Below the pieces are notes generated by a model. It was not told the origin of the DNA. It saw only the letters and a program-made list of their open reading frames with translations, and ran no database searches. Of a stretch of 64,000 nucleotides of DNA, positions 46,742 to 64,000 are shown one piece after another (within the stretch, counting starts at the first letter, position 1; the number at the start of each line of letters is the position of its first letter). The stretch comes from Sphingomonas sp. (GTDB lineage: Bacteria; Pseudomonadota; Alphaproteobacteria; Sphingomonadales; Sphingomonadaceae): assembly GCA_025356055.1 (NCBI GenBank), contig JANXUU010000133.1:11570-75569 (forward strand). Reading direction: 5' to 3'. Position numbers and translations under genes: made by a program.

Positions 46742-46745
46742 CGCC

Positions 46746-48458
46746 TCAATGCTCCTTGGTTTCGTGAACGAAGGGCAGGACCTCGCTCATGTTCGCGTCG
46801 CGGTGCATGTCCGGCCGTACGCCGAGCATCGGCGCGATCCGGCTTACGGTTCGGGAATAGGCGGGGCCGATATTCCACGCGGCGGTGTGGAAGCCGAATG
46901 TTTTCGCGGTCGGTTTCGGATCGTCGAGCATCATTACCATCGCGTAACGCGGCTCGTCCATCGGGAACACGCCGGCGAAGCTCGTGACCACGGCCGCCGA
47001 GGTGTAACGACCGCCCGCAAGCTTCTCGGCGGTACCGGTCTTGCCGCCGACGCGATAGCCTGGCGCATCGGCCATCCTGCCGGTGCCCTTCATGACGACC
47101 AACCTCAGCAATGCGCGCGACTTGTAGCTGGTTTCCTCGGTGAACACACGGTGGCCTTGGCCGACCGGATGATGAGCGTCGATCTTGAGGATGGTCGCTG
47201 GATGATAGACCCCGCCGTTGAACAAGGTCGCATATCCCGTTGCCAGGTGGAGCGGCGTTACCGCAATGCCATGGCCGAAGCCGACCGTCATGGTCGCGAC
47301 ATCACCCCAGTTGGCACCCGGTGTCAGAGTGCGGCCGCGCTCCCTCAGTTCGATCTGAACCGGCGCCAGGAAGCCCATGCTGGCGAGGAATGCCCTCTGC
47401 CGGGCCGCGCCGACCTGGAGCGCGATCTGCGCAGCGCCGATGTTGGAACTTTCTTCCATTATCTCGGCGACTGAACAGGCCCGGCCGAAGGGATGGGTGT
47501 CGTGGACCGTCACCTTGCCATAGTGGAATTCCTTAGGACAATTATACATTTGCCCGACCGACTTCACCAGGCCCAGGTCCATCGCCATGCCGACCGTGAA
47601 CGGCTTGAACGTCGAGCCCAGTTCGTAAACGCCGAGCGTTGCGCGGTTGAAGCGGGCCTCGGGCGATCCCTGTCCCGCGACGTTGGGATTAAGCGTTGGT
47701 AGCGAGGTCATCGCCAGCACTTCGCCGGTGTGAATATCCATCACCACGCCCGCCGCGCCGATTGCCGAAAATTCCGTCATCGCCGTGTTGAGCTCATGCT
47801 CGAGTGCTTGCTGCACCTTGCTCGAGATCGACAGGGTGATCGGGGTGCCACGGGTCGCCGGATCGGACAGTTGCTTGTCGAACGCGCGTTCCGCCCCGGC
47901 CGCGCCATGCCCATCAATATCGGTGAAACCGAGCACATGCGCGGCGAGGCTGGTCTGCGGGTAAAGCCGGTCCGGAGTCCGTTCGAGCGCCATCCCCGGC
48001 TCACCCAGCGCATTGACCGCCTCGACCAGCTGCGGTGAAGCCCGGCGCTGGAGGTAAAAGAATGGCTTGCCCGAGCGGATCATGGCGAAATAGCTCGCCT
48101 CGTCCTTTTCGGGCATCAGCTTTGCAAGGTTGCGCGCAAGCGCATACTTGTCGCCGATAACTTTCGTCGGCTGCAGCGCGATGCTCCACACGTCGATCGA
48201 ACTTGCCAGTAAATGTCCGTCGCGATCGACAATGTCCCCACGCGGCGGGATCAGCGCGTTCACCATCCCGCGCCGCCCGGCATGATCACCGAACGCCGCC
48301 AGCCACAGCAGTCGGCAGACAATCAGCGCGACGATCACGCCATAGCCGATCATCCCGAACATCAGTCGTTGGTGAAGGACCGCGAGAATCTGCCGACGTT
48401 GTCCGACCAGTCGGAGCCGCTCGGGCCTGGTGACGAGAGCGGGCGTGGGCGCGTTCAT
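46746..48458 (-). CDS. ftsI: Penicillin-binding protein 3
   Basis: RGDIVDRDG, ELGSTFK (SxxK), SSN (SxN), KTGT. Confidence 0.95.
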   Translation of the reverse strand: MNAPTPALVTRPERLRLVGQRRQILAVLHQRLMFGMIGYGVIVALIVCRLLWLAAFGDHAGRRGMVNALIPPRGDIVDRDGHLLASSIDVWSIALQPTKVIGDKYALARNLAKLMPEKDEASYFAMIRSGKPFFYLQRRASPQLVEAVNALGEPGMALERTPDRLYPQTSLAAHVLGFTDIDGHGAAGAERAFDKQLSDPATRGTPITLSISSKVQQALEHELNTAMTEFSAIGAAGVVMDIHTGEVLAMTSLPTLNPNVAGQGSPEARFNRATLGVYELGSTFKPFTVGMAMDLGLVKSVGQMYNCPKEFHYGKVTVHDTHPFGRACSVAEIMEESSNIGAAQIALQVGAARQRAFLASMGFLAPVQIELRERGRTLTPGANWGDVATMTVGFGHGIAVTPLHLATGYATLFNGGVYHPATILKIDAHHPVGQGHRVFTEETSYKSRALLRLVVMKGTGRMADAPGYRVGGKTGTAEKLAGGRYTSAAVVTSFAGVFPMDEPRYAMVMMLDDPKPTAKTFGFHTAAWNIGPAYSRTVSRIAPMLGVRPDMHRDANMSEVLPFVHETKEH

Positions 48459-49111
48459 CAGTGCGTGGCTTTGTCCTTGGTGACCGTGGTCTCGGCCGGG
48501 TGTGCTGACGACTTGGCGTCATGCTTTGTCGGGAGCAAGGGCGCGGACTTGGGGACCGTCGCGATTTTGACCGCGTTGGTCGTAATCGAAATATTCTTGA
48601 CGGCTTTTAGAGGTTTTTGCGGCACGGCAGATGTCGTCGGCAATCTGTAGCTTGCGACATGCATCATGCTCGCCGCTCCGTCCTTTCGGGGAGCACTGTT
48701 CGGAGCAGGGACAGCTTCGGTCGCAGCGACATCGGCATCATAGTCAGCGGTCGGCTGGGCCGGCGCGGGCCTGGGCGCCGCCGCCAGCACCACTGGCGCG
48801 GTCATGTCGACCTCGTCACTCGGTCGGGCGAGACGAGCAAGCTGATAGCCGCCATCGACGAACTGATCGGCCTTGGGCGCCGACAGCGCGAGCACCTTGA
48901 CGTTCCACCGCTCAAGCTGCTCGAGCCGTCCGCGCGTGCCGATCTCGGTCTGCAGCGTGCGTATCTCGCGCTGGGCGAGCACGATCCTGTTCTCGACTTC
49001 CTCGAGCCCGGCGCGTTCTGACGCGACCCGTAGCGAAACAAGGTAACAGCTCAGCGCGGCAACCGCGATTCCGGCGACGGAAATGACCGGACGGAAGGAA
49101 CGAGCGCTCAC
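48458..49111 (-). CDS. ftsL: FtsL-like protein with long C-terminal extension
   Basis: TM helix plus coiled coil, located between rsmH and ftsI. Confidence 0.7.
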
Positions 49112-50103
49112 GGGCGGCCTCCTGCTTTACGCGTGACTTTGGGTGGCTGGGGCTGGTCCCACGCGGGCGCCGCGGTGCGAACTGCACTTCGCAGCCGAGC
49201 CGAGCGCGCGCGCGGGTTCCGGGCCAGCTCCGCGTCCGATGCGGACAGCGGCTTGGCGACTTCGTTGAAGCTCGGTGGCGGACCGGCGGCGGCGAGCGGG
49301 CGATGCCGCGATCCTGCCGGCACATCGCCGCTGCGCTCCTTCATGAAGCGCTTGACGATGCGGTCCTCGAGGCTGTGGAAGGTGACCACCGCCAGCCGCC
49401 CGCCCGGCCGCAGCGCGCGTTCGGCGGCGCGCAGACCGGCTTCAAGCTCGTCGAGTTCGGCGTTCAAATGGATCCGGATCGCCTGGAAGGTGCGAGTCGC
49501 CGGGTCAGTCTTCATCCCGGCGTGATGGCGCAGCGCCTTGCGCACCACCGCTGCCAGCCCCGCAGTCCGCGTCAGCGGCCGCGCAGCGACGATTGCCCGG
49601 GCCACCGACCGCGCGCGCGGTTCCTCGCCATATTCCTTGATGACGCGCGCAATCTCGGTCTCGTCGGCTTCGTTGACGAACTCGGCCGCGGTCAGCCCGG
49701 CCTTGCTCATCCGCATGTCGAGCGGACCGTCCTGCCCGAAGGCGAAGCCGCGCTCGGCCTGGTCGAGCTGCATCGACGACACCCCGATGTCGAGCACGAT
49801 GCCATCGACCGGCGACAGGTCGCGCTCGTCGAGCACCCGGTCCATTTGGCTGAACCGTTCCTCGATAAGCGTCAATTTCGGGTCAGGGACGAGCGCCGGC
49901 CCGTTCGCGATCGCATCCGGATCGCGATCGAAGCCGATCACCCGCCCCGCTCCCGCTCCGAGCAGGGCGCGCGTATAGCCCCCTGCCCCGAACGTGCCGT
50001 CGACCAGCGTTTCGCCTGGGACGAGGCGAAGGGCAGCGACGACTTCATCGACCAGTACCGGCACGTGGCCCGTGGGGACGGCCTGCGGCGCACAGGGACT
50101 CAT
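49108..50103 (-). CDS. rsmH: 16S rRNA m4C1402 methyltransferase
   Basis: [39 protein letters not shown]. Confidence 0.97.
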
Positions 50104-50591
50104 GCGCCAAGGCCCCGTTCCTCAAGCCGGAAGCGGGCGATGTCCTTCATGTCCTCGGGGATGCGCGCATCGCCAAGGAACAGCTTTGGATTCCAGATTT
50201 GAAACGTCTCACCAGTGCCGAGGAACAGCGCAAGATCCTCGATTGCGCTTTTGCGGCGCATCATCGGCGGCAACAGGATCCGCCCCGACGAGTCGTAGGG
50301 CGTCTCTTCGGTCGCAGCGAAAGCCATCAGGTTGCGGCGCTGATACTCGAGTTCCGCGTCGGGATTGGTTTCTTCCTTTTCGAGCAGGCGCTCGAGCTTG
50401 GCGTGGCGCGCCGAGGCATAGCCGGGGTCATACGCGCTCAACGCCGGGAACTGGTCATGCTTGGCAAGGACGATGGTGCGCGCGTCGCCGCGCCGTTCGA
50501 TCACTTGGCGCAGGAAGGCGGGCACGGACACACGCCCCTTGGCGTCGACCGCGTTCAGCGCACTACCTTGGAACAGATGCTCCAGTGCCAC
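50100..50591 (-). CDS. mraZ: Division/cell-wall cluster transcriptional repressor
   Basis: [10 protein letters not shown] and DSSGRILLP SpoVT/AbrB repeats; first gene of the dcw cluster. Confidence 0.93.
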
Positions 50592-50736
50592 TTGAACGTC
50601 CCCTCATGCGCTACGGCGCAGTGCCTCTTTCATGCGCAAGGCTTCCCCCTCCGCGCCGGCAGGGCCGATGCGGTCGATGAAGGACTCGGATAGGGTTGCC
50701 CCGCGCTACAGCTGCTGTTGGTAACTCAGCTTAACC

Positions 50737-52437: not shown

Positions 52438-54921
52438 TTAGAGGTCGGGCAGCGCCTGCTTCGCCTGACCCCAGCCGGCGAGGAGCGGCGACGCGGCCCG
52501 CTCGAGCAATTCGTCGACATCGCGGATCGAGAATCGGTTGCCACCTTTCGCACTCGCCATTTCATTCCAGTCGATCGGCGCCGCGACTGGGGCGCCCTTT
52601 CGCGCTCTTGCCGAGTAAGGTAAGACCGCGGTTGCTCCTCGCTGATTGCGAAGCCAGTCGATGAAGATGCGCCCGGTGCGCTGGTTCTTGCGAATGTTGG
52701 CGGTGAACTCCTTGGGATATTGCTCTGCGATCGCGCGACTGAAACGTTCGGCGAAGCTCTTCACCGCCGGCCAGTCCGATGTTTGGTCGAGCGGCGCCAC
52801 GACGTGAATTCCCTTTCCTCCCGACAGCAGCGCGAAAGTCTCGAGCCCAAGGTCGGCGAGCAACGCACGCAACTTCTCTGCCCCGTCGCGCACCGCCCCA
52901 AAGTCCAGTCCCTCGTCAGGGTCGAGGTCGAACACCAGCCGGTCGGGTTTTTCCAACGGATCGATCCGGCTCCCCCAACCGTGGAATTCGATCGTTCCCA
53001 TCTGAACGCAGCCGAGCAGCCCTTCGACCCGGTCGACATAAAGGTAATCCTCGGTCGAACCATCCTTTTCGGTCACCGGGACGTGATGCACGAAGTCGCC
53101 CATCGCTCCCGTGTCATGCTTCTGGAAAAAGCATTTCTTCGCCCTGCCTTGTGGACAGCGGATCAGCGTCAGCGGGCGGTTGGCGGCGTCGATCATGATC
53201 GGCGCCGCAATCGCGGCATAATAATCGGCAAGCTGGCCCTTGGTGATCTCGTCGCCGGGAAAAATCACACGGTCCGGATTGGTGATCCGCGCGCCCAATG
53301 AGGCGAAGGTGGCAAGCTCGGACCTTTGCGTTTTGGCGGGTTTGGCGACTTTCTCGGGGAGTTCGCGTACGACCTGATCGGCGCGCTTGTCCTCGCGCAG
53401 GGCGATGAAGCTCGGGTGGCGAAGCACGCCCTCGGTGGTGAACTCGGTGAAGGCGATCTCGCACACCAGGCTGGGCTTGATCCAGTGCGACCCGCGCCAC
53501 ACCGTGCGCGGCACCGTCACGGGCGCTTCTTTCACTTCGAGCGGCGCCATCGTCTCCGACAGGCTCTCGAGCAGCTTGGTATCGAACCCCGTCCCGACCT
53601 TGCCTGCATAGGTTAGTTTTTTTCCCTCTCTCGCCGCAAGATGGAGCGCTCGAAACCCGCGGCGCTTGTCGCTTTCCTGCCAGCCGATAATTACGAACTC
53701 CTGGCGGTTGGTGCACTTTACCTTGAGCCAGTTCTTCGCCCGCGCGCCGGTGTAGGGCGCGCTCGCTTTCTTGGCGATGATCCCCTCGCCGCCCTCCTTG
53801 CAGATTGCCTCGAACAGCGCTTCGCCCTTGGCGAGGATATGGTCGCCGTAGGCGATCGGCCCGCCGACCCCCTTGAGCAATGACGCGAGCCGCTCCTTGC
53901 GCTCAAGATTGCCGAGCTTCGAAATATCCTCGCCGCGATCGACGATCAGGTCGAACGCGTAGAAAGCGATATCCGCCTTGCCGTCCTTCAAGGTCGACTG
54001 GAGCAGCTGGAAATCGGGCTTGCCTTTGACCCCCAGTGCCACCGCCTCGCCATCGATTAGACAACCCGCCGGAAGATCGGCAGCCGCTTTGACCATCCCG
54101 CGAAACTTGTCCGACCAATCCTTGCCATTGCGAGTCCACGCCGTCGCCGCCCCGCCCCCGGTTGCCAGCAGCAGACGGTAGCCGTCGTACTTATATTCGA
54201 ACATCCAGCCCGATCCGCTCGGCACCGCATCGACCAAAGTCGCCAATTGCGGCGGGCGAAAATCCGGCGGCGGAACCGAGGCCGCCTTGTGTGTGCGCCC
54301 GCCCTTCTTGCCGCCCTTGCTCGACAACCACACATCGGTGCCCGCCGTGATCTCGGCCATCGTTCGCCCGGTCGTCACACTGGTGAGACCATCCTCAACC
54401 AGCGCTTCGCCGTCGTCGCAGGCATTGTCATCGGTAACTTTCTTGAGCATCCAGTTTTCGCCTTTTTCGCCCGGTTTGCCCTTGAGGCGAAACATCACCC
54501 ACTCGCCCTTCATCCGCTCGCCTTCGAGCGTGAAATGCAAATGCCCCTCCTCGATTGTCTTCCTCGGATCCTTGTCGGGGTGTGGGATCCACTTGCCTTG
54601 ATCCCAAAGCATCACCGTGCCGCCGCCATATTCACCCTTTGGGATCGTCCCTTCGAACGTCCCGTAATCGAGCGGATGGTCCTCGGTCCGAACCGCCAGC
54701 CGATTGTCTTTCGGGTTGAGGCTCGGCCCGCGCGGCACCGCCCAGCTCTTGAGCACGCCGTCGAGTTCGAGCCGAAAATCCCAGTGGAGGCGCGAGGCGT
54801 CGTGCTTCTGGACGACGAAGCTGTCACCCTTCCCCTTGAGCTTGCGCCCCTTGGGCTCGCCGGTCTTCGCGAAATCGCGTTTTTCGTTGTATGTCTCGAT
54901 GTCGAGCTTGCGGGCTGGCAT
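52438..54921 (-). CDS. ligD: NHEJ DNA ligase D (phosphoesterase-ligase-polymerase)
   Basis: FVVQKHDASRLHWDFRLE, EYKYDGYR, WLKVKC, DRLVFDLDP, IDWLRNQRG. Confidence 0.97.
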   Translation of the reverse strand: MPARKLDIETYNEKRDFAKTGEPKGRKLKGKGDSFVVQKHDASRLHWDFRLELDGVLKSWAVPRGPSLNPKDNRLAVRTEDHPLDYGTFEGTIPKGEYGGGTVMLWDQGKWIPHPDKDPRKTIEEGHLHFTLEGERMKGEWVMFRLKGKPGEKGENWMLKKVTDDNACDDGEALVEDGLTSVTTGRTMAEITAGTDVWLSSKGGKKGGRTHKAASVPPPDFRPPQLATLVDAVPSGSGWMFEYKYDGYRLLLATGGGAATAWTRNGKDWSDKFRGMVKAAADLPAGCLIDGEAVALGVKGKPDFQLLQSTLKDGKADIAFYAFDLIVDRGEDISKLGNLERKERLASLLKGVGGPIAYGDHILAKGEALFEAICKEGGEGIIAKKASAPYTGARAKNWLKVKCTNRQEFVIIGWQESDKRRGFRALHLAAREGKKLTYAGKVGTGFDTKLLESLSETMAPLEVKEAPVTVPRTVWRGSHWIKPSLVCEIAFTEFTTEGVLRHPSFIALREDKRADQVVRELPEKVAKPAKTQRSELATFASLGARITNPDRVIFPGDEITKGQLADYYAAIAAPIMIDAANRPLTLIRCPQGRAKKCFFQKHDTGAMGDFVHHVPVTEKDGSTEDYLYVDRVEGLLGCVQMGTIEFHGWGSRIDPLEKPDRLVFDLDPDEGLDFGAVRDGAEKLRALLADLGLETFALLSGGKGIHVVAPLDQTSDWPAVKSFAERFSRAIAEQYPKEFTANIRKNQRTGRIFIDWLRNQRGATAVLPYSARARKGAPVAAPIDWNEMASAKGGNRFSIRDVDELLERAASPLLAGWGQAKQALPDL

Positions 54922-54924
54922 CGA

Positions 54925-55800
54925 TCAGGCCCGCTTGCGCGCCGGAGTCGTTTTTTTCGCAGGTGCCGCCTTGGCCTTTGCCGCCGGCTTCTTGGCAGGC
55001 GCCTCGTCCTCGGCCCCGCCCAGGCTCTTTTTTAGCGCTGCCATCAGGTCGATCACATTCGAGCCTTTGGCCGGCGCGTCATCGTCGGGATCCTGGATGA
55101 TCAGCTCACCCTTCGACTTGCGCTTCTCCTCGATCAGGCTTCGCAGCGCATCGACGTAGCGATTGTGGAACTCGGCCGGATCGAACGTCCCTGCCTTCTT
55201 GGCGATCAGCGTCGCGGCGAGATCGAGCAGGTCGGGATCAGGCTTGGCATCGCCGATCTCGCGGAAATAGCTCGCCGCCTTGTTGACCTCGTCCGAATAG
55301 CGCAGCGTCTCGAGCACCATTCCGCGCCCGCACGGTTTCAGGCTGACGACATATTCCTGCCCACGCATCGCCAGTTGCCCGACTCCGACCTTCTTCGCCG
55401 CCCGCAACGCATCGCGAAGGACCACGAACGCTTCCTCGGCAAGGTCGTCGGCGGGGACGACATAAGAGGGCTTGTCGTAATAGATCGCGTCGATGTCGCC
55501 ATAATCGACGAACTGGGTGAGCTCGAGCGTCTTGCGGCTCTCCAGCTTGACCGCCTCGATCTCCTCTGGCTCAAGCAGGACATATTCGCCTTTCGAGACT
55601 TCATATCCCTTGACGATCTCGTCGACGTTGACCGGCCCGATCCCGGGCACGACCTTTTCATATTTGACGCGCTTGCCGGACGGCTCGTGGACCTGGTGGA
55701 AGGCGATCGAGGCGCCACTCTTCGTCGCGGGGAAAATCTCGACCGGGATCGCGACGAGCGCCAACCTGATCTGTCCCCGCCATGCTGGCCGCGCTGCCAT
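54925..55800 (-). CDS. ku: NHEJ protein Ku
   Basis: WRGQIRLALVAIPV, KGYEVSKG, YYDKPSY, basic C-terminal tail. Confidence 0.96.
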   Translation of the reverse strand: MAARPAWRGQIRLALVAIPVEIFPATKSGASIAFHQVHEPSGKRVKYEKVVPGIGPVNVDEIVKGYEVSKGEYVLLEPEEIEAVKLESRKTLELTQFVDYGDIDAIYYDKPSYVVPADDLAEEAFVVLRDALRAAKKVGVGQLAMRGQEYVVSLKPCGRGMVLETLRYSDEVNKAASYFREIGDAKPDPDLLDLAATLIAKKAGTFDPAEFHNRYVDALRSLIEEKRKSKGELIIQDPDDDAPAKGSNVIDLMAALKKSLGGAEDEAPAKKPAAKAKAAPAKKTTPARKRA

Positions 55801-55864
55801 CGCTGTTCCCCTGTTCGGTGTGGAGCCAACAACAGTCGGCTGCGTGAAATTGTGGAGCCGATTC

Positions 55865-55889
55865 AATCATCGGACGCAGGGGTCGTTCC
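55865..55889 (-). promoter_or_regulatory. Possible EcfG-type promoter of ku-ligD
   Basis: Minus strand GGAAC-N16-GATT; -10 element deviates from (C/G)GTT. Confidence 0.4.
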
Positions 55890-56296: not shown

Positions 56297-58660
56297 TCAG
56301 CCGAACCGCCGCGTGTCGATGAGCAATTGCGCGACAGCGTCGATGATGGCCTTGGAATCGAGCCGGTACAGGTCGAACAGATCGGGCAGGTCGCCGGTCT
56401 GGCCGAAGCGATCCGTGCCGAGCGGGCTGACACGCATCCCGCGCACCCCGCCGAGCCAGGACAGAGTCGAGGGGGCACCATCGATGATGGTGACCAGGCC
56501 GGCATGCGGGGCAAGGTCGTTCAGGAGCGCCTCGGCGTGGCAGGGTTCGCCCGCCTTGCCGGTCCAGCGCGACGCCTGATGCGCCGACCAGTCGCGGTGC
56601 AGCAGGTCGGGCGAGGTGACCATCAGCAGCCCGAGCCCGAGAACGTCGTCGGCCAGTTCATCAGCGGCGGCGAGCACTTCAGGCGTGACCGCACCGGTGA
56701 AAGCGATGGCAAGATCGGCAAGGCCGGAGGGCTTGCGCAACCAGTAGCCACCCTTGAGCGCGGGTTCGCGCCAACGGTCGTCGACGCGCTCGATTTGCGG
56801 CAACGCGCGCGTCGTCAGGCGCAGATAGACCGACCCGCCGTCCGGAGCCTGCAGATGCTCGAACGACCAGCGCATGATCGCTGCCAGCTCGTCAACATAC
56901 GCCGGCTCGAAATAGGTCAGGCCGGGCTGGCCAATCCCGATCAGCGGCGAGTTGATCGACTGATGCGCCCCGCCCTCGGGCCCAAGCGTCAGCCCCGATG
57001 GGGTCGCGACGAGAAGGAAGCGCGCACCCTGGTAACAGGCATAGTTCAACGCATCGAGCCCGCGCGCAATGAACGGATCATAGACCGTGCCGATCGGGAT
57101 CAGGCGAGTCCCGAACAAGGGCGCGGCGAGGCCGAGCGCGGCGAGCATCAGGAACAGGTTATTTTCGGCGATGCCCAATTCAATGTGCTGGCCCGCGCCA
57201 TGTCCGGCCCATTTCTGCGCGGTCGGGATTTTAGCCGCCGCGAACACGTCGCGAAGTTCCTGCCGCCGAAACAGCCCGCGCTGGTTTACGAACGCGCCAA
57301 GATTGGTCGACACCGTGACGTCCGGCGAGGTGGTGACGATGCGGTCGGCGATGGCGGCGCCGGACTTGGCGAGGTCGAGCAGGATGCGTCCGAACGCCGC
57401 CTGGGTCGCCTGCTCCGCGCCATCGGGAGTAGGAATGTCGGGCACGGCAACGGGCGGCGCGACCGGCTCACCCTTCGCCCTCGCGAGCGCGCTGCCCTCT
57501 ACGACCGCGCGGGCGGCCGCGGCGGCATTGTCGCCCATGCCGCCATAGGGCTCCCACTCGTCGCCCGGCTCGATCCCCATCGCATCGCGCAGGCTCTCGA
57601 TCTGCGTCGGGTTCATCAGACCGGAGTGATTGTCCTTGTGCCCGGCGAACGGCAGGCCGCGGCCCTTGATGGTATAGGCGATGAACAGCGTCGGTCGCTC
57701 GTCATCGCACCGCGCAAAGGCCTCAAGCAGCGTCTCGATGCAATGTCCGCCAAGATTGGTCATGAGTGCCGCCAGCGCAGCGTCGTCGTGCTCGGCTAGG
57801 AGGTCGAGCGACTTGGGCGATCCGGAGAGATCGCGTTCCAGCCGCTCGCGCCATGCCGCTCCGCCCTGATAGGTCAGCGCGGCAAATTCGGCGTTCGGGC
57901 AATTGTCGATCCACTCGCCGATCGCGGCCCCGCCGGGCCTGGCGAACGTCGCAAGCTGGATCTTGCCCTGTTTCAGCGTCTCGACCCGCCACCCGCACGT
58001 CTCGAAGATGTCGTCGAACCGGCGGAACATGCGATCGGCGGTCGTGCTGTCGAGCGACTGGCGGTTATAGTCAACGATCCACCAGCAATTGCGGACGTCA
58101 TGCTTGAAGCATTCGATCAGGCACTCGTAGATATTGCCCTCGTCGAGCTCGGCGTCGCCCATCAGCGCGATCATCCGCCCGGCGTCGGCCTCGGCCATGT
58201 CGCCATGCGCGATCAGATAGTCCTGGACGAGGCTGGCGAAAGCGGTGACCGCGACGCCGAGCCCAACCGAGCCGGTTGAAAAGTCGACCGGGATCGAGTC
58301 CTTGGTGCGCGATGGATAGCTTTGCGCGCCGCCAAGCCCGCGATACCGCTGCAAAGCGTCGAGGCTCTGCTGGCCCAGCATGTAGTGAATCGCGTGGAGC
58401 ACCGGCCCGGCGTGCGGCTTGACCGCGACCTTGTCGTTGGGGCGCAACGCACCGAAATACAGCGCGGTCATGATCGCGGTGATCGACGAGCAGCTCGCCT
58501 GATGGCCGCCGACCTTCAGCCCGTCGCGCGAATCCCGCAGGTGATTGGCGTTGTGGATCGTCCACGACGACAGCCAGCGCAGCCTTGCCTCGATGCTGTC
58601 GAGCACGGCGATTTCCCCGGGCAAGGGCTTTGACGGATGCGGCAATGTATTGGCGATCAT
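56297..58660 (-). CDS. Homodimeric AceE/MdeB-like ThDP-dependent 2-oxoacid dehydrogenase E1
   Basis: VGGHQAS, QSYP, FSTGSVGLG, GDAELDE...DYNRQSLD ThDP motif, GIAENN, EGGAHQS; start 58660 or 58672. Confidence 0.85.
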   Translation of the reverse strand: MIANTLPHPSKPLPGEIAVLDSIEARLRWLSSWTIHNANHLRDSRDGLKVGGHQASCSSITAIMTALYFGALRPNDKVAVKPHAGPVLHAIHYMLGQQSLDALQRYRGLGGAQSYPSRTKDSIPVDFSTGSVGLGVAVTAFASLVQDYLIAHGDMAEADAGRMIALMGDAELDEGNIYECLIECFKHDVRNCWWIVDYNRQSLDSTTADRMFRRFDDIFETCGWRVETLKQGKIQLATFARPGGAAIGEWIDNCPNAEFAALTYQGGAAWRERLERDLSGSPKSLDLLAEHDDAALAALMTNLGGHCIETLLEAFARCDDERPTLFIAYTIKGRGLPFAGHKDNHSGLMNPTQIESLRDAMGIEPGDEWEPYGGMGDNAAAAARAVVEGSALARAKGEPVAPPVAVPDIPTPDGAEQATQAAFGRILLDLAKSGAAIADRIVTTSPDVTVSTNLGAFVNQRGLFRRQELRDVFAAAKIPTAQKWAGHGAGQHIELGIAENNLFLMLAALGLAAPLFGTRLIPIGTVYDPFIARGLDALNYACYQGARFLLVATPSGLTLGPEGGAHQSINSPLIGIGQPGLTYFEPAYVDELAAIMRWSFEHLQAPDGGSVYLRLTTRALPQIERVDDRWREPALKGGYWLRKPSGLADLAIAFTGAVTPEVLAAADELADDVLGLGLLMVTSPDLLHRDWSAHQASRWTGKAGEPCHAEALLNDLAPHAGLVTIIDGAPSTLSWLGGVRGMRVSPLGTDRFGQTGDLPDLFDLYRLDSKAIIDAVAQLLIDTRRFG

Positions 58661-58873
58661 GTCCACGGCCATGGCATAAACCGCGCCGGTCATCCCGGCA
58701 AAAATTATTACGGCATAAGAGCCTCGCATTCAGGTCATGGCGATGCCTTGCCTGCGCACCGCAATTGCGATGATCGAAAACGCGATGATTTTGACATGCC
58801 GCCATGCGCAAATGCGATTTTCAATCGACCCGCCGGTCGTGCGAATTACGGCCGCATGATGGGGAGGCGTTAG

Positions 58874-60079
58874 GTGGACCTTGAGGAGATCTCGGCGCAG
58901 TTGTGCGCGCGGCCTCCTGGCCATTCGCTGCCCCAGCCATTCTACACCGACCCCGATTTCTTCGACTTCGATCTGACCGCGATTTTCGCGCGAAGCTGGC
59001 TGTTCGTCGGGTTCGAGGTCGAGCTCGGCAAACCCGGCGATTATCTCTCGCTGACCATCGGGCAGTGGCCGATTTTGATCATGCGCGGCCGCGACGGGAC
59101 GGTGCGCGGCTTCCACAACAGCTGTCGTCATCGCGGGTCGGCGCTGTGCCCGTCCGGATCCGGCCATGCCGCGCGCATGGTCTGCCCCTATCACCGCTGG
59201 ACTTATGGGCTCGACGGCAAGTTGCTCGCGGCGGGGCGGATGCCGGACGATTTCGACAAGAGCGAGTACGGCCTGAACCCGATCAACCTCGAGATCGTCG
59301 CCGGAGCGATTTTAGTGTGCCTTGCCGACACCCCGCCGCCGCTCGACACGATGCGCCGCGACCTGACGCCGCTGCTTGCCCCGCAGAACTTCGCCCATGC
59401 CAAGCTCGCGCACCAGTCGGTCCTGATCGAACAGGCTAATTGGAAGCTGGTCATGGAGAACGCGCGCGAATGCTATCATTGTGCGACCGGCCACCCCGAG
59501 CTGTCGCGTACCTTCCCGGTCAACGCCTCGGCCTATTTCGACATTGATACCGAAGCGTCACGGGGATTCGAGGAGCGCATCGCCGCGCTCGGCCTGCCGA
59601 TGGGCCCGGCGGGCGAGGATTGGTGGCAGGCGGTTCGCTTCCCGCTAAACGAAGGCACGGTGGCGATGACCATGGACGGCCAGTTCAACGTCGCGAAACT
59701 GATGTGCGAAGCGGGCGGCGGCGACACCGGATCGATGCGCTGGGCGATCGAGCCCAATGTCTTCTGCCATTCGACCAGCGAATATACGTTCGCCTTCACC
59801 GCCATGCCGATCTCGCCGACCGAAACCCATGTCGTGTCGAAATGGCTGGTTCATGAGGATGCGGTCGAGGGGGTCGACTATACAATCGAGACGCTGACCG
59901 ACCTGTGGACCCGAACCAACCTGCAGGACAAGGCACTGGCCGAGAACAACCAGCGGGGCATTTTCTCACCCGGTTACACGCCGGGGCCGTACAGCCCCGA
60001 CGCGGAATCGCTGACGATGCGCCTCGTCGACTGGTATTGTGCGACTTCGCGCCGCTTTCTCGACGAGGCCAGGGCATGA
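58874..60079 (+). CDS. Rieske non-heme iron oxygenase alpha subunit, GbcA/Stc2-like
   Basis: CRHRG...CPYHRWTY Rieske motif, ENARECYHC..GHPEL iron ligands, QD...E.NQRG. Confidence 0.88.
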   Translation: MDLEEISAQLCARPPGHSLPQPFYTDPDFFDFDLTAIFARSWLFVGFEVELGKPGDYLSLTIGQWPILIMRGRDGTVRGFHNSCRHRGSALCPSGSGHAARMVCPYHRWTYGLDGKLLAAGRMPDDFDKSEYGLNPINLEIVAGAILVCLADTPPPLDTMRRDLTPLLAPQNFAHAKLAHQSVLIEQANWKLVMENARECYHCATGHPELSRTFPVNASAYFDIDTEASRGFEERIAALGLPMGPAGEDWWQAVRFPLNEGTVAMTMDGQFNVAKLMCEAGGGDTGSMRWAIEPNVFCHSTSEYTFAFTAMPISPTETHVVSKWLVHEDAVEGVDYTIETLTDLWTRTNLQDKALAENNQRGIFSPGYTPGPYSPDAESLTMRLVDWYCATSRRFLDEARA

Positions 60080-61335
60080 CCACGCACGACGACCCGACCT
60101 GGCATCCCGAAACGCTGGCCGTGCGCGCCGGCTATGATCCGGCGAGCGCGGGCAATTCGGCCAAGCCACCGATCACCATGACCTCGACCTTCGCCTATAA
60201 ATCTGCGCGGCAGGCGAAGGATATCCACGAAGCCTATTTCTCCGGCACCGGGCCCGAGGCGGGCAAGCCCAACCACATCTACGCGCGGCTCGGCCACCCC
60301 AATCTCGACATGGTCGAGGCGCGGCTGGCGGCGCTCGACGGTGCCGAGGCAGCCGCGGTGTTCAACAGCGGCATGGCAACCCACAGCGCGATCGCTCTGG
60401 CGCACCTGCGGCCCGGCGACAGCGTCGTCTTCAGCCGCCCGATCTATGGCGGGACCAACGGGCTGCTGACCCAGTTCATGCCGAACTTCGGGGTGAAGCC
60501 GTTCGCCTTTACCGACGGTTGCGACCGAGCGGACATCGAGCGCTCGGTCGAGTTGGCCCTCGCGGCGGGTCCGCTCAAGCTGATCGTCATCGAAACTCCG
60601 GCCAACCCCACCGCGGCGATGGTCGATATCGCGCTGATCGTGGAAATCGCCGATGCAATCGGGATGCGCACCGGCACGCGCCCGCTGGTAGTCGTCGACA
60701 ATACGCTGCTCGGCCCGCTGATGCAGCGCCCAATCGCGCTCGGCGTCGACCTGTGCATGACCTCGCTGACCAAATAGTGCGGCGGGCACAGCGACTTGCT
60801 TGCCGGCGGGGTAAGCGGGCGGGCCGAGCTCATCCACCCGCTCCGCCTGCTGCGCACCACGCTTGGCAGCCACCTTGACCCCTACACGAGCTGGCTGTTG
60901 CTGCGCTCGATGGAGACCGTCCACCTGCGGATGGAGCGCGCCTCCGCCAATGCCCGCCGCGTCGCCGAAGCGCTGCGCGTCCACCCCAAGGTGGCCAGCA
61001 TCACCTACCTCGGCTTTCTCGAAGACGGATCGCCCGAGCGCGCTGTCTACGGCCGTCAGTGCACCGGCGCCGGATCGACCTTCTCGTTCGCGCTTCACGG
61101 CGGCGAGGCCGAGGCGTTTCGCTTCCTCGATGCGCTCCGACTGCTGAGCTTTGCGGTCAGCCTTGGCGGGTCGGAAACGCTGATCACCCATCCCGCGACG
61201 ACCACCCACTATTCACTGTCGCCCGAAGAACGCGCGGCGGGCGGGATTACCGATTCGACGCTTCGGCTTTCGGTCGGGATCGAGCATGGCGACGACCTGA
61301 TCGCCGACATCACGCGCGCGCTGGAGGCAGTCTGA
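60076..61335 (+). pseudogene. Cys/Met-metabolism PLP enzyme (methionine gamma-lyase/cystathionine gamma-synthase family) with an internal TAG
   Basis: HPETL, IYARLGHPN, FNSGMA, ETPANPT, DNT, SLTK*CGGHSD, VSLGGSETLITHP, LRLSVGIE all in one frame; TAG at 60775-60777. Confidence 0.85.
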
Positions 61336-62717
61336 TGGTCACCGACCGCCACGCGATTAACGGCAAGATCTCTGCTCCCGACGAGCGGTTCGACGTCGTC
61401 GTGGTCGGCGCCGGATCGGCCGGCACCGCGGCGGCAATCGACGCGGCCAGGGGTGGGGCGTCGGTCCTGCTGATCGACGAGAACCCGGTCCGCGGGGACA
61501 TGATCGGGACCGACGTTCCGCTTTATTTCGGCGGCCGGATGACGGCGGCGGTGCAGAGCCCGCAGCGGATGGTCGAACAATTGTTCGCCACCAACCCGTT
61601 GCTCGAGGAAGCCTTCGACGCCGGGGTCGATGTCCGCCTCGGCACCTGCGCCTGGGGCCTCTACGTCAACGGCCCGGCGATGCGCACGCTGCCCGAACCC
61701 TTGCTCGGGATCGCCGACAGTGAGAGCGCGACGATGATCGGCTTCGGGCGCCTGCTGCTCGCAACCGGCGCGCGCGACGTCGTCCTCGGGTTCGAGGGCT
61801 GGACTCGCCCGGGGGTGATGGGTGCGCAAGGGTTCGCAATGCTGCTCGCCCGCTACGACGCTTTGGCGAGCCGGCGGATGCTCGTCGTCGGTGGCGGCGA
61901 GCTTGGCCGGGAGACCGCCCGCCTCGCCCTCGATCGCGGGCTCGAGGTTGCGGGGATCGTCAGCCTTGGCGCGATCGATCCCGTCGGCGATGTCCCGCTG
62001 TTCCCGCACCACAGCATCGCAGCGACCCAAGGCGGGATCGATGGAGTCGAGCGGGCCGTGCTGGCTTCGCTCTCCGGCGACGGACGAACCACCATCGAGT
62101 GCGACACGATCGTCCTCGCCATCGCCGCCGCGCCCGCGACCGAGTTGCTCGATGCAGCGGGCGTCGGGCCGGGTGGCACGATCGAGCTGATCGGTGACTG
62201 CGCCACCGTCCCGCGCCCCGACCCCGCCCTGCTTGCCGCCTGGTCCGCCGCGCTCGGCCGCTACGCCACTCCGGCGACCATCGTCTGCCAGTGCGAGGAG
62301 GTCACCCGCGCCGACCTGATCGGGGTCCAGCCACCCAACTATCTCGATCGCCCCGCCCCAATGGCCGCCCGCTCGCTCGCCTCGCTGCTCAACGACGGCC
62401 CCGCCCACCCCGATCAGATTAAGCGGCTCACGCGGGCCGGGATGGGCGCATGCCAGGGCCGCCGCTGCCGCGAGCAGGTGACTTGCCTCCTCGCCGCCGA
62501 GCAGGGCACGACGCCAGACCGTGTCCCCGTCGCCAGCCTGCGCGCGCCCGTCCGACCCATCCCGCTCGGCATCCTCGCTGACTGGAACGAGCGCCCCGAG
62601 ATGGCCGCCGGTTGGGACGTGTGGTTCGGTATCCCGACCCAATGGCTGCCCTATGCCGTCATCGGCACGCCCGAGGAAGCGGAACTGGTCGCGAACGGCG
62701 GGAACATGCATGTCTGA
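61335..62717 (+). CDS. HcnB/OoxA-like FAD/NAD(P) oxidoreductase with C-terminal BFD-like Cys motif
   Basis: VVVVGAGSAG, ATGARD, GWTRPGVM, IVCQCEEV...KRLTRAGMGACQGRRC. Confidence 0.85.
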   Translation: MVTDRHAINGKISAPDERFDVVVVGAGSAGTAAAIDAARGGASVLLIDENPVRGDMIGTDVPLYFGGRMTAAVQSPQRMVEQLFATNPLLEEAFDAGVDVRLGTCAWGLYVNGPAMRTLPEPLLGIADSESATMIGFGRLLLATGARDVVLGFEGWTRPGVMGAQGFAMLLARYDALASRRMLVVGGGELGRETARLALDRGLEVAGIVSLGAIDPVGDVPLFPHHSIAATQGGIDGVERAVLASLSGDGRTTIECDTIVLAIAAAPATELLDAAGVGPGGTIELIGDCATVPRPDPALLAAWSAALGRYATPATIVCQCEEVTRADLIGVQPPNYLDRPAPMAARSLASLLNDGPAHPDQIKRLTRAGMGACQGRRCREQVTCLLAAEQGTTPDRVPVASLRAPVRPIPLGILADWNERPEMAAGWDVWFGIPTQWLPYAVIGTPEEAELVANGGNMHV

Positions 62718-63858
62718 CCCTGCACTCCCCAAGGGCGCGTCGGTGGTCGTCATCGGAGCGGGCGTGACCGGGCTCAGCGCCGCCTGGTGGCTCGCGCGCG
62801 ACGGCTATGACGTGGTCGTGCTCGACAAGGGGATCGTCGGCTGGGAAGCGTCGGGCCGCAACGGCGGTGGCTGCTCGCACTATCAAAGCCCGCTATTCGT
62901 CGAGGAGCAGCGGCTGTGGCCGCAGATGGACGAACTGCTCGGCTATCCGACCGAACATCGCCCCGAGCGGATCATTCTCCAGCGCGACCAGCACTTGCTC
63001 GATCATTATCGTGCGGTTGGCCGGATGTGCACCGCGCTCGGCTATCGCGTCGACGATCTCGATTCGCAACAGGCACAGGAACTGGTTCCGCTGACCGACG
63101 GGTCCTGCCTTGGCGGGATCCACCTGCGCTTCGGCGGTCATGCCAATCCGCAGCGTACGGTGCAAGCCTATGCCTGGGCGCTGCAGGATCTGGGCGGCAA
63201 AATCTTCCAGCATTGCCCGGCATTGTCGATCGAGGTGGCGGGCGGGAAAGCCGTCGCGGTCAACACCCCGCGCGGGCGGATCGAGTGCGATGCGCTGGTC
63301 GTCGCCGCTGGGCCGCAAACAGGGATGCTGCTCGAGCCCCTCGGCGTAAACTTCCCGATCACGTCGGCTCGCGCCGAAATGATCGTCACCGAACCGGCGC
63401 CGCTGATGGCGATCGGCGGGGTCGACGGCAACGGGCTCTACGGCCGCCAGACGATGCGCGGCAACCTCGCCTTTGGCGGCGGCCCGCACGAATGGATCGA
63501 CATGGAGCCGACCGGCCCCGCCGCGCGTCCGGTCTCGCCCCTCGCTCGCAACCTCGCCCGCCGCGTCGCCGAGATGTTTCCCAAGGCGGCGCACCTCAAC
63601 GTCATTCGCAGCTGGGCCGGGGTGATCGAGAATACGCCCGATGGCCGCCCGATCATCGACCGCCTGACCGACCCCGCCAACGTCACCGTCGCGACCCTGT
63701 CGGGCGTGGGGTTCGGCCTGTCCCCGGCAAGCGGCCACGCGATCCGCGATCTCGTCGTCGACGGGTCATGCTCCTTCGCGGAAATCTCGAAGCTCGGCCT
63801 CGCCCGCTTCGCCGCTCTCGAGCCCGACTGGCGCGAGCGGCGCGGGTGGGCGGCGTGA
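62710..63858 (+). CDS. DAO-family FAD-dependent amino-acid oxidoreductase, HcnC/OoxB-like
   Basis: VVVIGAGVTG, EASGRNGG, RSWAG....TPDGRPII, GVGFGLSP. Confidence 0.85.
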   Translation: MSDPALPKGASVVVIGAGVTGLSAAWWLARDGYDVVVLDKGIVGWEASGRNGGGCSHYQSPLFVEEQRLWPQMDELLGYPTEHRPERIILQRDQHLLDHYRAVGRMCTALGYRVDDLDSQQAQELVPLTDGSCLGGIHLRFGGHANPQRTVQAYAWALQDLGGKIFQHCPALSIEVAGGKAVAVNTPRGRIECDALVVAAGPQTGMLLEPLGVNFPITSARAEMIVTEPAPLMAIGGVDGNGLYGRQTMRGNLAFGGGPHEWIDMEPTGPAARPVSPLARNLARRVAEMFPKAAHLNVIRSWAGVIENTPDGRPIIDRLTDPANVTVATLSGVGFGLSPASGHAIRDLVVDGSCSFAEISKLGLARFAALEPDWRERRGWAA

Positions 63859-64000
63859 CTTATTACTCAGCACTCGCACTGATCAAGGCGGGCTTCACCG
63901 GCCAGAAGAAATGGGACCGGGCATGGCGCGATCCCGAGCCCCGGAAGCACTATGACATCGTCGTCATTGGCGGCGGCGGGCACGGCCTCGCGACTGCTTA
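63855..64000 (+). CDS. soxB: Sarcosine oxidase beta subunit family, 5' part (cut by window edge)
   Basis: GTG start overlapping the upstream stop; YSALALIKAGFTGQKKWDRAWRDPEPRKHYDIVVIGGGGHGLATA is the typical SoxB N-terminus. Confidence 0.85.
   Translation, partial: MTYYSALALIKAGFTGQKKWDRAWRDPEPRKHYDIVVIGGGGHGLATA

Follow-up and report, generated by a model that had tools for sequence, protein, structure and literature searches.

A conserved alphaproteobacterial operon with a proposed role in the catabolism of a betaine-type amino acid

A 64,000-nucleotide stretch of Sphingomonas sp. DNA (the window) ends within an operon that couples genes for oxidative amine demethylases to a gene for a Cys/Met-family PLP enzyme. 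We propose, with a probability of roughly 60% and on the strength of sequence comparison, that this conserved alphaproteobacterial operon serves to break down an imported amino acid of the betaine type (alpha-N-methylated) other than glycine betaine or stachydrine. The gene order Rieske oxygenase, PLP enzyme, OoxA, OoxB and SoxBDAG is found again in some 80 species-level genomes from the Sphingomonadales and the Caulobacteraceae, which bears out the view of a first-pass annotation that a conserved catabolic operon here unites oxidative demethylases with a gamma-lyase-family PLP enzyme. That annotation did not recognize the gene combination, and neither a comparable pathway nor a description of the operon was found in the literature that we searched.

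Organization of the locus

Pfam and family models place the open reading frames and protein families where the first-pass annotation had put them, and the junctions and strands agree with its account of five coupled genes divergent from an AceE-like E1 gene. The features in the window are as follows:

56297..58729, minus strand: E1-like thiamine-diphosphate enzyme, a distant AceE/transketolase relative of 810 aa (Pfam Transketolase_N, Transket_pyr, PDH_E1_M)
58730..58873, no strand: divergent intergenic region between the E1 gene and the Rieske gene, read from the sequence
58874..60079, plus strand: Rieske non-heme-iron oxygenase of the quaternary-amine N-demethylase group, Stc2/GbcA-like (PF00355 and PF00848)
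60076..61335, plus strand: Cys/Met-family PLP enzyme, a divergent branch of NF005455/PRK07049 (PF01053 over both halves)
60775..60777, plus strand: in-frame amber codon TAG inside the PLP gene (aaa tag tgc)
61335..62717, plus strand: OoxA/HcnB-like alpha subunit with FAD/NAD-binding fold (Pyr_redox_2, a weak BFD-like 2Fe-2S domain, SO_alpha_A3)
62710..63858, plus strand: OoxB/HcnC-like beta subunit, a DAO-family amine dehydrogenase (PF01266, DAO, 216 bits)
63855..64000, plus strand: soxB, 5' end in the window (TIGR01373, 65 bits for the 48 aa that the window covers)

From the Rieske gene to soxB the genes are chained by overlapping stops and starts, the junctions read from the sequence being ATGA, TGATG, ATGTCTGA and GTGA, with 8 nt shared by the OoxA-like and OoxB-like genes. 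A GGAGG sits 7 nt upstream of the GTG start of the Rieske gene, and promoters presumably lie in the intergenic region between this gene and the divergent E1 gene. No E2 or E3 gene was found near E1; ku and ligD lie upstream of it.

The operon continues on contig C45, which overlaps the end of contig C23; soxD, soxA, soxG and purU follow past the window on the same strand. The first-pass annotation had proposed inspecting the genes beyond position 64000 for a reductase, a transporter and a regulator: soxDAG and purU are there, and none of these three, a regulator and a transporter being found in relatives instead. A GcvA-like LysR gene is divergent from the operon at 69 of 84 related loci and absent from this one, and for transport the relatives have an MFS protein or, in the case of Radicibacter daui, an ABC system of the ProXWV type.

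Conservation across genomes

Failure of the genes to co-occur elsewhere would, by the reasoning of the first-pass annotation, have counted against the cluster; instead their order holds at virtually all of the 80 loci retrieved from named genomes, and the genes are therefore not neighbours by chance. In R. daui, and at every locus retrieved with the PLP protein as the query, the PLP gene stands in translational coupling between those for the Rieske protein and OoxA. In the 84-locus comparison the OoxA-like gene was found at 77 loci, and purU and frmA recur beside the operon at 16 and 11. The Caulobacteraceae version consists of four genes, and two Novosphingobium loci (L074 and L089) are without the Rieske gene. 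Among plasmids, the sole close match is N. capsulatum's copy of this operon; the rhizobial plasmid homologues examined (about 49% identical) are solitary, with neither Rieske nor OoxAB genes. Esterase-like genes are neighbours at some loci (PAF-AH-like at 21, DUF3089 at about 7, peptidase S15 at 3), and may be merely inherited synteny.

In R. daui, a LysR gene and a ProX/W/V-type betaine ABC importer are divergent from catabolic genes for a Rieske protein, a GbcB-like reductase, the PLP enzyme, OoxA, OoxB and a SolA/MSOX-like oxidase. SoxBDAG is replaced by a non-orthologous, monomeric sarcosine-oxidase-like enzyme, and the set again comprises three oxidative amine enzymes and a PLP enzyme. 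The GbcB-like reductase (213 bits, cut-off 500) was seen in R. daui alone.

The Rieske oxygenase

The first gene of the operon encodes a protein (PF00355, 54 bits; PF00848, 109 bits) with the Rieske [2Fe-2S] ligands CxH...CxxH (CRHRG...CPYHRW) and a Ring_hydroxyl_A domain. It also carries the mononuclear-iron motif E-C-x-H-C-x3-H, bridging Glu and Cys pair included (residue roles from PMC7948474), in which ENARECYHCATGHP aligns with ENNRECYHCSSNHP of the stachydrine N-demethylase Stc2. Stc2 (3VCA) is the closest solved structure, at 390 bits, and because the alpha-carboxylate of the substrate ligates the iron in the Stc2/GbcA group (PMC7948474), this relationship points to an alpha-betaine as the putative substrate.

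In the tree, the operon-linked Rieske proteins, the one studied here among them, form a clade of their own (support 98/98), apart from Stc2 and 3N0Q. An Asn at the position of CntA Tyr203 is the signature of clade Vb (PMC7948474); the protein studied here has Ala at this site, as do 39 of the 75 operon-linked Rieske proteins, the other 36 having Gly, and the Asn is kept in Stc2, 3N0Q and non-operon paralogues as well as in GbcA and BmoA. Before the second iron-binding His, Asn is replaced by Gly, Ser or Cys in the 75 operon-linked proteins. The other Rieske, DMGDH and Sox-like modules of the same genome keep the Asn signature and are better candidates for the common betaines. No dedicated FNR-plus-ferredoxin reductase gene stands beside the oxygenase in the locus, and no GbcB-type reductase was detectable in the 97%-complete genome, where a motif scan gave only a PaaE-like protein.

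The flavoprotein pair and the sarcosine-oxidase-type genes

The OoxA-like and OoxB-like genes have the architecture of OoxAB, HcnBC and PDH1, with a DAO-family beta subunit adjacent to an alpha subunit carrying Pyr_redox_2, Fe-S and SO_alpha_A3 regions, although Fer2_BFD falls just below its cut-off (24.8 against 26 bits). Kinship to any characterized member is too remote to suggest a substrate: the closest solved structure to the OoxB-like protein is the beta subunit of Pyrococcus L-proline dehydrogenase (1Y56_B, 90 bits), no solved structure matched the alpha subunit at E <= 1e-8, and the genome holds no paralogue of the latter. The OoxB-like gene is the best conserved of the operon (64-91% identity across loci), and together with the alpha subunit its product is proposed to act as the second demethylase.

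The genes that follow are those of a heterotetrameric enzyme of the sarcosine-oxidase type, B, D, A and G in this order. SoxB at its full length of 418 aa scores 643 bits on TIGR01373 (cut-off 529), SoxD matches PF04267, and SoxA combines Fer2_4, SO_alpha_A3 and GCV_T; SoxG, which has no Pfam match, was assigned by its position and by tblastn matches of the SoxG-position protein at related loci. PurU carries Formyl_trans_N and ACT.

The PLP enzyme and its amber codon

Read through its amber codon, the PLP protein scores 518.5 bits on NF005455 ('cystathionine gamma-synthase family protein'), barely above the cut-off of 504; its counterpart in the R. daui operon scores 517.3 bits, and a paralogue present throughout the genus 666.8. 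Aligned with methionine gamma-lyase (MGL) of P. putida, it is a fold-type I Cys/Met enzyme that retains the PLP-binding Lys (Lys211) and the equivalents of Tyr59, Arg61, Tyr114, Ser340 and Arg375. The hallmark of MGL is Cys116, within a YGCT motif; here this residue is Gly (YGGT), and the score on the MGL equivalog TIGR01328 is 340.5 bits, below the cut-off of 549.7. The residues that it retains are the catalytic ones for gamma-elimination, and we propose that the enzyme is a gamma-eliminating lyase.

The amber codon, which the first-pass annotation of this cluster does not mention, replaces a Tyr codon directly 3' of that for the PLP-binding Lys (SLTK*CGGHSD). A genome of the same genus (G018) has TAT at this position, and protein P0006 (98% identical) has Tyr; intact orthologues with 73-98% identity are widespread. 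Relative to P0006, amino-acid differences number 6 in 233 residues before the stop and 4 in 185 after it, and no suppressor tRNA was found among the 41 tRNAs of the genome. We think that the codon is probably a real and recent mutation, a consensus error or one due to a minor variant being a lesser but serious possibility. With a premature amber in the lyase gene, the last step of the pathway, that of the lyase, has probably been lost in this genome's copy.

The E1-like enzyme

The E1-like protein scores 139.7 bits on the aceE model (cut-off 859.9), and its closest solved structure is the PDH E1 of E. coli, at 106 bits. Alignments of its relatives begin at residues 14-42, so translation may in fact start at an internal Met close to residue 20. 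A link between the operon and an E1-type 2-oxoacid enzyme, as the first-pass annotation had it, does recur (13-16 loci, in at least four different arrangements), with E1 as a facultative neighbour: it occurs in 29 of 41 related genomes regardless of the operon, and is common in relatives that lack it. The protein is 72-83% identical to the operon-adjoining E1 copies of other Sphingomonadales and only 63-68% identical to those of its genus-mates, and operon and E1 appear to have come together from a different Sphingomonas lineage.

Proposed pathway and alternative readings

The steps given here are drawn from the gene families; their order, what each enzyme does chemically and the substrate are all inferred. 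The Rieske oxygenase would hydroxylate an N-methyl group of the quaternary amine, freeing formaldehyde; the OoxAB-like two-subunit flavoprotein would then oxidize the tertiary amine; and SoxBDAG (in R. daui the monomeric sarcosine-oxidase-like enzyme) would pass the last methyl group to tetrahydrofolate, the folate being recycled by PurU. The resulting free primary amino acid would be the substrate of the Cys/Met-family PLP enzyme, which by alpha,gamma-elimination or, less likely, alpha,beta-elimination would yield a 2-oxoacid and ammonia. Where E1 is linked, the 2-oxoacid, probably 2-oxobutyrate, may be decarboxylated by the E1-like enzyme. Our guess at the substrate is homoserine betaine, whether free or in the form of the glyceryl ether that remains from algal DGTS lipids. 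There are counterpoints: the genes of the operon would also be enough to take glycine betaine to glycine, all characterized relatives of the OoxAB-like pair are distant, the locus encodes no reductase for the Rieske enzyme, the Rieske gene is missing from the two Novosphingobium loci, and ordinary enzymes could use homoserine made by the pathway, so that a dedicated lyase is not strictly required.

It seems rather improbable that the operon is simply a sphingomonad glycine betaine pathway, in which the Rieske protein is GbcA, the OoxAB-like pair a dimethylglycine dehydrogenase, SoxBDAG a sarcosine oxidase and the PLP enzyme an accessory (for example, in linked sulfur or one-carbon amino-acid metabolism). 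All three demethylations from betaine to glycine would be covered, purU and frmA are near, and R. daui has a ProXWV-type importer whose binding protein finds its closest solved structure in one annotated as glycine betaine/proline-binding. The Rieske protein reaches 414 bits on the GbcA model (NCBIfam NF058607 equivalog), below the cut-off of 670, a threshold that discriminates poorly in Alphaproteobacteria, as every homologue in this genome, G018 and R. daui misses it. An accessory PLP gene, however, is hard to square with its coupled position between the Rieske and OoxA genes at every PLP-query locus and in R. daui; all 75 operon-linked Rieske proteins have lost the clade Vb Asn and stand in a separate clade, and the modules that keep this signature are encoded elsewhere in the genome. 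The domains of the flavoprotein pair also match those of octopine/nopaline oxidase and HcnBC-type pairs, as in an opine-type pathway where an N-(carboxyalkyl) amino acid is cleaved and the freed amino acid degraded by the PLP enzyme. We give this very little credence: similarity to characterized members is low, an opine-type transporter is absent, the plasmid matches examined are the N. capsulatum operon or solitary rhizobial homologues, and the constant partners (quaternary-amine demethylase, sarcosine-oxidase-type enzyme, purU and frmA) indicate C1 release.

The substrate favoured by the first-pass annotation, a methylated sulfur amino acid (S-methylmethionine or an N-methylated Met or Cys) that would be demethylated and then split at its C-S bond as by MGL, with an MdeB-like E1 decarboxylating the 2-oxobutyrate, is not upheld, and we hold it to be quite unlikely. 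To our knowledge, S-demethylation by group V Rieske enzymes has no precedent. Methionine gamma-lyases are the top models for the PLP enzyme after the uncharacterized PRK07049, and the pairing of E1 with a gamma-lyase recalls mdeAB of P. putida, whose MdeB prefers 2-oxobutyrate (preprint 10.1101/2022.07.13.499613). Yet group V Rieske enzymes, among them the Stc2/GbcA N-demethylase group, act on quaternary N-methyl groups (PMC7948474), the MGL Cys is Gly and the MGL model score low, no thiol- or sulfur-handling gene occurs among the labelled neighbours at 80 loci, and E1 is a distant AceE relative distributed regardless of the operon. An N-trimethylated methionine could still be the substrate.

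Comparison with known systems

One of the closest known systems is glycine betaine catabolism in Pseudomonas and Chromohalobacter, where GbcAB/BmoAB is followed by DgcAB or dimethylglycine dehydrogenase and finally by SoxBDAG. Both would remove three N-methyl groups by stepwise oxidation, beginning with a group V Rieske monooxygenase and ending with a heterotetrameric sarcosine-oxidase-type enzyme, and both have PurU and formaldehyde detoxification genes near. In contrast, the second step here would fall to an OoxAB/HcnBC-type two-subunit flavoprotein rather than DgcAB or DMGDH, the Cys/Met-family PLP enzyme is an invariant coupled member, the Rieske protein lacks the clade Vb Asn and belongs to its own clade, and the sphingomonad operon is without a reductase gene. 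With Stc2 of Sinorhizobium meliloti, a stachydrine (proline betaine) demethylase, the Rieske protein shares its Rieske and mononuclear-iron motifs, with a pair of Cys flanking the first His ligand; it differs in belonging to a sister clade, in reading ENARECYHCATGHP for ENNRECYHCSSNHP, and in a wholly different gene context that lacks the stc3/stc4 reductase genes and stcD.

Like mdeAB of P. putida, the locus has a gamma-lyase-family PLP gene beside an E1-type ThDP gene without E2 or E3; unlike them, the two genes diverge and are not co-transcribed, the E1, itself distant from AceE, accompanies the operon only facultatively, and the lyase lacks the Cys typical of MGL. With OoxAB/NoxAB, HcnBC and archaeal PDH1 the flavoprotein pair shares overlapping genes for a DAO-family catalytic subunit and a Pyr_redox_2/Fe-S/SO_alpha_A3 subunit, whereas its nearest solved beta subunit is as remote as 90 bits, it has no HcnA-like third subunit, and its genes stand among those of N-demethylases rather than opine, cyanide or proline genes.

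Gene content and boundaries of the operon

The window (C23:11570-75569) comes from a 2.5-Mb assembly in 157 contigs that is 97% complete, and in its 3' part five plus-strand genes are oriented away from a minus-strand E1 gene:

56297-58729, minus strand: E1-like thiamine-diphosphate enzyme, 810 aa (Transketolase_N, Transket_pyr and PDH_E1_M domains)
58874-60079, plus strand: Rieske/Ring_hydroxyl_A oxygenase
60076-61335, plus strand: Cys/Met-family PLP enzyme
61335-62717, plus strand: OoxA/HcnB-type protein (Pyr_redox_2/BFD-like/SO_alpha_A3)
62710-63858, plus strand: OoxB/HcnC-type protein (DAO family)
from 63855, plus strand: soxB, 5' end only in the window

These positions and domain matches confirm the layout proposed in the first-pass annotation (five families and a divergent AceE-like E1), and the gene junctions read from the sequence (ATGA, TGATG, ATGTCTGA and GTGA) make its description of the genes as translationally coupled correct. 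Downstream, soxB is complete on contig C23 (643 bits against a cut-off of 529 for TIGR01373), and soxD and soxA come after it; contig C45, which overlaps the end of C23, supplies the end of soxA and then soxG and purU. The end of C23 and the start of C45 have more than 100 identical bases in common inside soxA, so the break is an assembly artefact and the operon runs on without interruption as far as soxG and purU. A reductase, a transporter and a regulator had been looked for beyond position 64000; soxD, soxA, soxG and purU stand there instead, and none of the three is encoded at this locus.

The E1 of the window is 82-83% identical to the operon-linked E1 of some other Sphingomonas loci, compared with 63-68% to the E1 of its genus-mates, a pattern of identities which suggests that E1 and operon were acquired as a unit. 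Upstream of E1 lie ku and ligD (52438-55866, minus strand; the 827-aa LigD has phosphoesterase, ligase and primase-polymerase domains), and upstream of these a division and cell-wall cluster at about 43400-50600 on the minus strand, in which mraZ and rsmH are followed by ftsL-, ftsI-, murE-, murF- and mraY-like reading frames, recognised by eye from N-terminal sequences only. As ku and ligD separate this cluster from E1, the acquired block may begin at or near E1.

Distribution among bacterial genomes

With the read-through PLP protein as query, thousands of relatives were found, those at 73-98% identity coming from Sphingomonas, Novosphingobium and related genera. Eighty loci of named species-level genomes, with 10-kb flanks, were scored by tblastn with the window's proteins, and all neighbour counts rest on that search. 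The recurrence expected of the cluster is borne out across the 80 fetched loci: wherever the contig extends far enough, the order Rieske, PLP, OoxA, OoxB is kept by tblastn (two Novosphingobium loci lack the Rieske gene), and SoxB, D, A and G directly follow OoxB in nearly all Sphingomonadales loci.

Table. Neighbours of the operon (tblastn)
GcvA-like LysR regulator, divergent from the Rieske gene: 69 of 84 loci
Secreted PAF-acetylhydrolase-like hydrolase: 21 loci
MFS transporter, anion:cation symporter type: 20 loci
purU: 16 loci
E1: 13-16 loci
frmA-type formaldehyde dehydrogenase: 11 loci
DUF3089 hydrolase: about 7 loci
S15 peptidase/esterase: 3 loci

A four-gene form without sox genes occurs in Novosphingobium capsulatum, N. 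pokkalii and Caulobacteraceae MAGs; in two of the latter (loci L104 and L107) an AbrB/VapC-like toxin-antitoxin pair is found between the LysR and Rieske genes. At L074 (Novosphingobium sp. B 225) and L089 (a related MAG) the LysR gene stands directly before PLP, OoxA, OoxB and SoxBDA, with no Rieske gene; L074 also has, some 1.4 kb downstream of the soxA that belongs to the operon, another SoxA-like match, on the opposite strand.

Within the window's genus the operon is present in 2 of 25 genomes, and the remaining genomes carry a PLP paralogue at 44-50% identity, as does the window's genome itself (on contig C21). PLP homologues at 46-53% identity in other genomes of the same order were set aside as paralogues, since no OoxA-like gene is found there; the roughly 49%-identical homologues on rhizobial plasmids, which stand alone (one beside an Lrp regulator), also fall outside this system.

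Among 400 sampled alphaproteobacterial genomes there was one further carrier, Radicibacter daui, where a GcvA-like LysR gene and a ProX/ProW/ProV-type ABC importer are divergent from six genes, which encode a Rieske oxygenase (59% identical), a GbcB-like FNR-ferredoxin reductase, a PLP enzyme (61% identical), OoxA, OoxB and a monomeric SolA/MSOX-like oxidase. Importer and reductase are thus present in R. daui and absent from the window locus, and the third amine-oxidizing enzyme differs, but both versions combine three oxidative amine enzymes with a PLP enzyme.

The Rieske oxygenase and its substrate class

The nearest solved relative of the Rieske protein is the stachydrine N-demethylase Stc2 (390 bits), and the protein belongs to the quaternary-amine group of Rieske oxygenases. 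Enzymes of the demethylating clade Vb bind the substrate carboxylate to iron, and in them Asn occupies the position of CntA Tyr203 (PMC7948474). In every one of the 75 operon-linked Rieske proteins, R. daui and Caulobacteraceae included, the motif is EN[A/G]RECYHCxx[G/S/C]HP; Stc2, 3N0Q and the Rieske paralogues beside DMGDH and second Sox-like genes (from the genome's own contigs C5 and C75, and the upstream copy in locus L047) read ENNRECYHCxxNHP. In a maximum-likelihood tree the operon-linked proteins form one clade (98/98 support), sister to Stc2 and 3N0Q. The model for GbcA, the glycine betaine oxygenase, was dropped as a discriminator, as no alphaproteobacterial homologue tested reaches its cut-off.

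At least four Stc2/GbcA-like Rieske genes occur in the window's genome (on contigs including C27, C5, C43 and C75), all of them followed by demethylase genes of their own, so the organism seems able to tell several methylated amines apart. Together, the kinship with Stc2, the altered motif, the separate clade and this genome's several Rieske genes argue, at the level of sequence, that the substrate is an alpha-betaine but neither glycine betaine nor stachydrine; they also disfavour S-demethylation.

One of these genes, on C27 (about 1-23000), belongs to the operon-linked type (70% identity) but stands alone, with its own GcvA-like LysR gene; its neighbours encode a DUF3089 protein, a TonB receptor, a TPR-sulfotransferase, an MFS transporter, an aldehyde dehydrogenase, an enolase-family protein, a GMC oxidoreductase and two DMGDH-like proteins. 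Short contigs carry two or three near-duplicate modules (DMGDH-like, Rieske, SoxB', SoxD'), which may be paralogues or strain variants.

A motif scan of the window's genome found no GbcB/VanB-type reductase for any Rieske oxygenase: the single match to FNR plus plant-type ferredoxin is a PaaE-like protein on C115, and the only flavin/Fe-S proteins encoded beside the genome's Rieske genes are OoxA- and SoxA-type alpha subunits. We speculate that in sphingomonad operons without a reductase gene, a flavin and iron-sulfur alpha subunit (OoxA or SoxA) may supply the Rieske oxygenase with electrons derived from amine oxidation.

The PLP enzyme and its amber codon

Judged by its profile score, the PLP enzyme belongs to NF005455/PRK07049 as a divergent member: it reaches 518.5 bits where the cut-off is 504, compared with 666.8 for the genus-wide paralogue. 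Its nearest structures, 5IJG and 7SWH, come from structural genomics and are uncharacterised. Aligned to methionine gamma-lyase (MGL) of Pseudomonas putida, it keeps the equivalents of Tyr59, Arg61, Tyr114, Lys211, Ser340 and Arg375, but has YGGT where MGL has YGCT and Arg-Thr where MGL has Lys240-Asp241: it looks like a competent gamma-family enzyme, yet no typical methionine gamma-lyase.

In the window the gene is interrupted by TAG at 60775-60777 (SLTK*CGGHSD), in place of the Tyr right after the PLP-binding lysine. Amber suppression or recoding is ruled out: no suppressor tRNA with a CUA anticodon occurs among the genome's 41 tRNAs, and relatives have Tyr at this position, encoded by TAT in the only other operon-bearing genome of the genus (PLP protein 92% identical) and found also in a 98%-identical metagenomic protein. 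Amino acid differences from the latter are no commoner past the stop (4/185) than before it (6/233). For these reasons the codon reflects either a nonsense mutation of very recent date or an erroneous base. If it is real, the pathway loses its last step and the next gene is no longer translationally coupled; the lyase of this genome is probably inactivated.

The E1-like enzyme

The E1 is, by sequence, only a distant relative of AceE, with 139.7 bits on the aceE model (cut-off 859.9); the E. coli PDH E1 matches at 106 bits. Its arrangements number at least four. It can lie upstream, on one strand or the other and with LysR in between or not; in one case, the Sphingomonadales MAG locus L057, it is found in opposite orientation between OoxB and SoxB, where it splits the operon. 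Its standing as an operon-specific partner is weakened by its presence in 29 of 41 related genomes irrespective of the operon, and by the paralogous PLP gene having no E1 neighbour. The E1 orthologues of three genus-mates (G021, G024 and G011) each showed one internal stop in a six-frame search (TAG, TAA and TGA), which may be start-extension artefacts or pseudogenes. In P. putida, 2-oxobutyrate from the lyase MdeA is taken by the E1 homologue MdeB (preprint 10.1101/2022.07.13.499613); the recurring linkage fits a 2-oxoacid product, suggestively only, because many relatives have the E1 but not the operon.

Proposed pathway

No PLP enzyme can make an aldimine from a tertiary or quaternary amine; the one encoded here must therefore act last. 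That R. daui repeats the pattern, with a different third enzyme, is the strongest reason to propose three successive demethylations and then a PLP reaction on the primary amine that they free. Of the first-pass interpretation, a conserved and apparently undescribed demethylation-plus-lyase pathway stands, and the sulfur chemistry is left without support.

Homoserine betaine is a cyanobacterial solute and the head group of the lipid DGTS. It would suit a pathway in which the demethylated amino acid requires a Cys/Met-family enzyme and is turned into 2-oxobutyrate, and on these grounds we tentatively propose, at a probability of roughly one in four, that the operon is an as yet undescribed bacterial pathway for the breakdown of homoserine betaine, whether as the free compound or as the DGTS-derived glyceryl-O-homoserine betaine. 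The latter would be left by deacylation of DGTS from algal, fungal or bacterial membranes; the trimethylammonium group would become a primary amine through the action of three different demethylases, and the CGS-family PLP enzyme would eliminate the gamma-substituent, glycerol ether bond included, to give 2-oxobutyrate for the linked E1. Gamma-elimination on the glyceryl ether of homoserine would explain how the ether bond is broken. The three unrelated esterase-like families beside the operon in different lineages are weakly compatible with release from an esterified precursor; the R. daui importer, whose OpuAC-family binding protein has a glycine betaine/proline-binding protein as nearest solved structure, points rather to a small free betaine. 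The DGTS-synthesis family BtaA (PF11899) had no match in the genome or 40 relatives, as it had none in the control genomes.

Soils, fresh waters and the sea contain much reduced carbon and nitrogen in the form of betaines and betaine lipids. To our knowledge a catabolic route has been worked out for just a handful of them: glycine betaine, the proline and hydroxyproline betaines, and carnitine. As the operon is conserved, regulated, easily recognised and carried by cultured strains (Sphingomonas echinoides, Novosphingobium capsulatum, Radicibacter daui), the identity of the betaine and the role of a gamma-lyase in a demethylation pathway are directly testable. Identifying the substrate would give a function to the PRK07049 subfamily of PLP enzymes, to a new Rieske N-demethylase clade with an altered pocket and to an OoxAB-type flavoprotein. 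For the window's own genome the result is more modest: an apparently acquired copy of the operon whose lyase seems to be knocked out. A full-text literature search found no description of the operon, its matches concerning general betaine, CntA and mde topics only; set against known systems, the operon is a variant, apparently undescribed, of the betaine demethylation theme.
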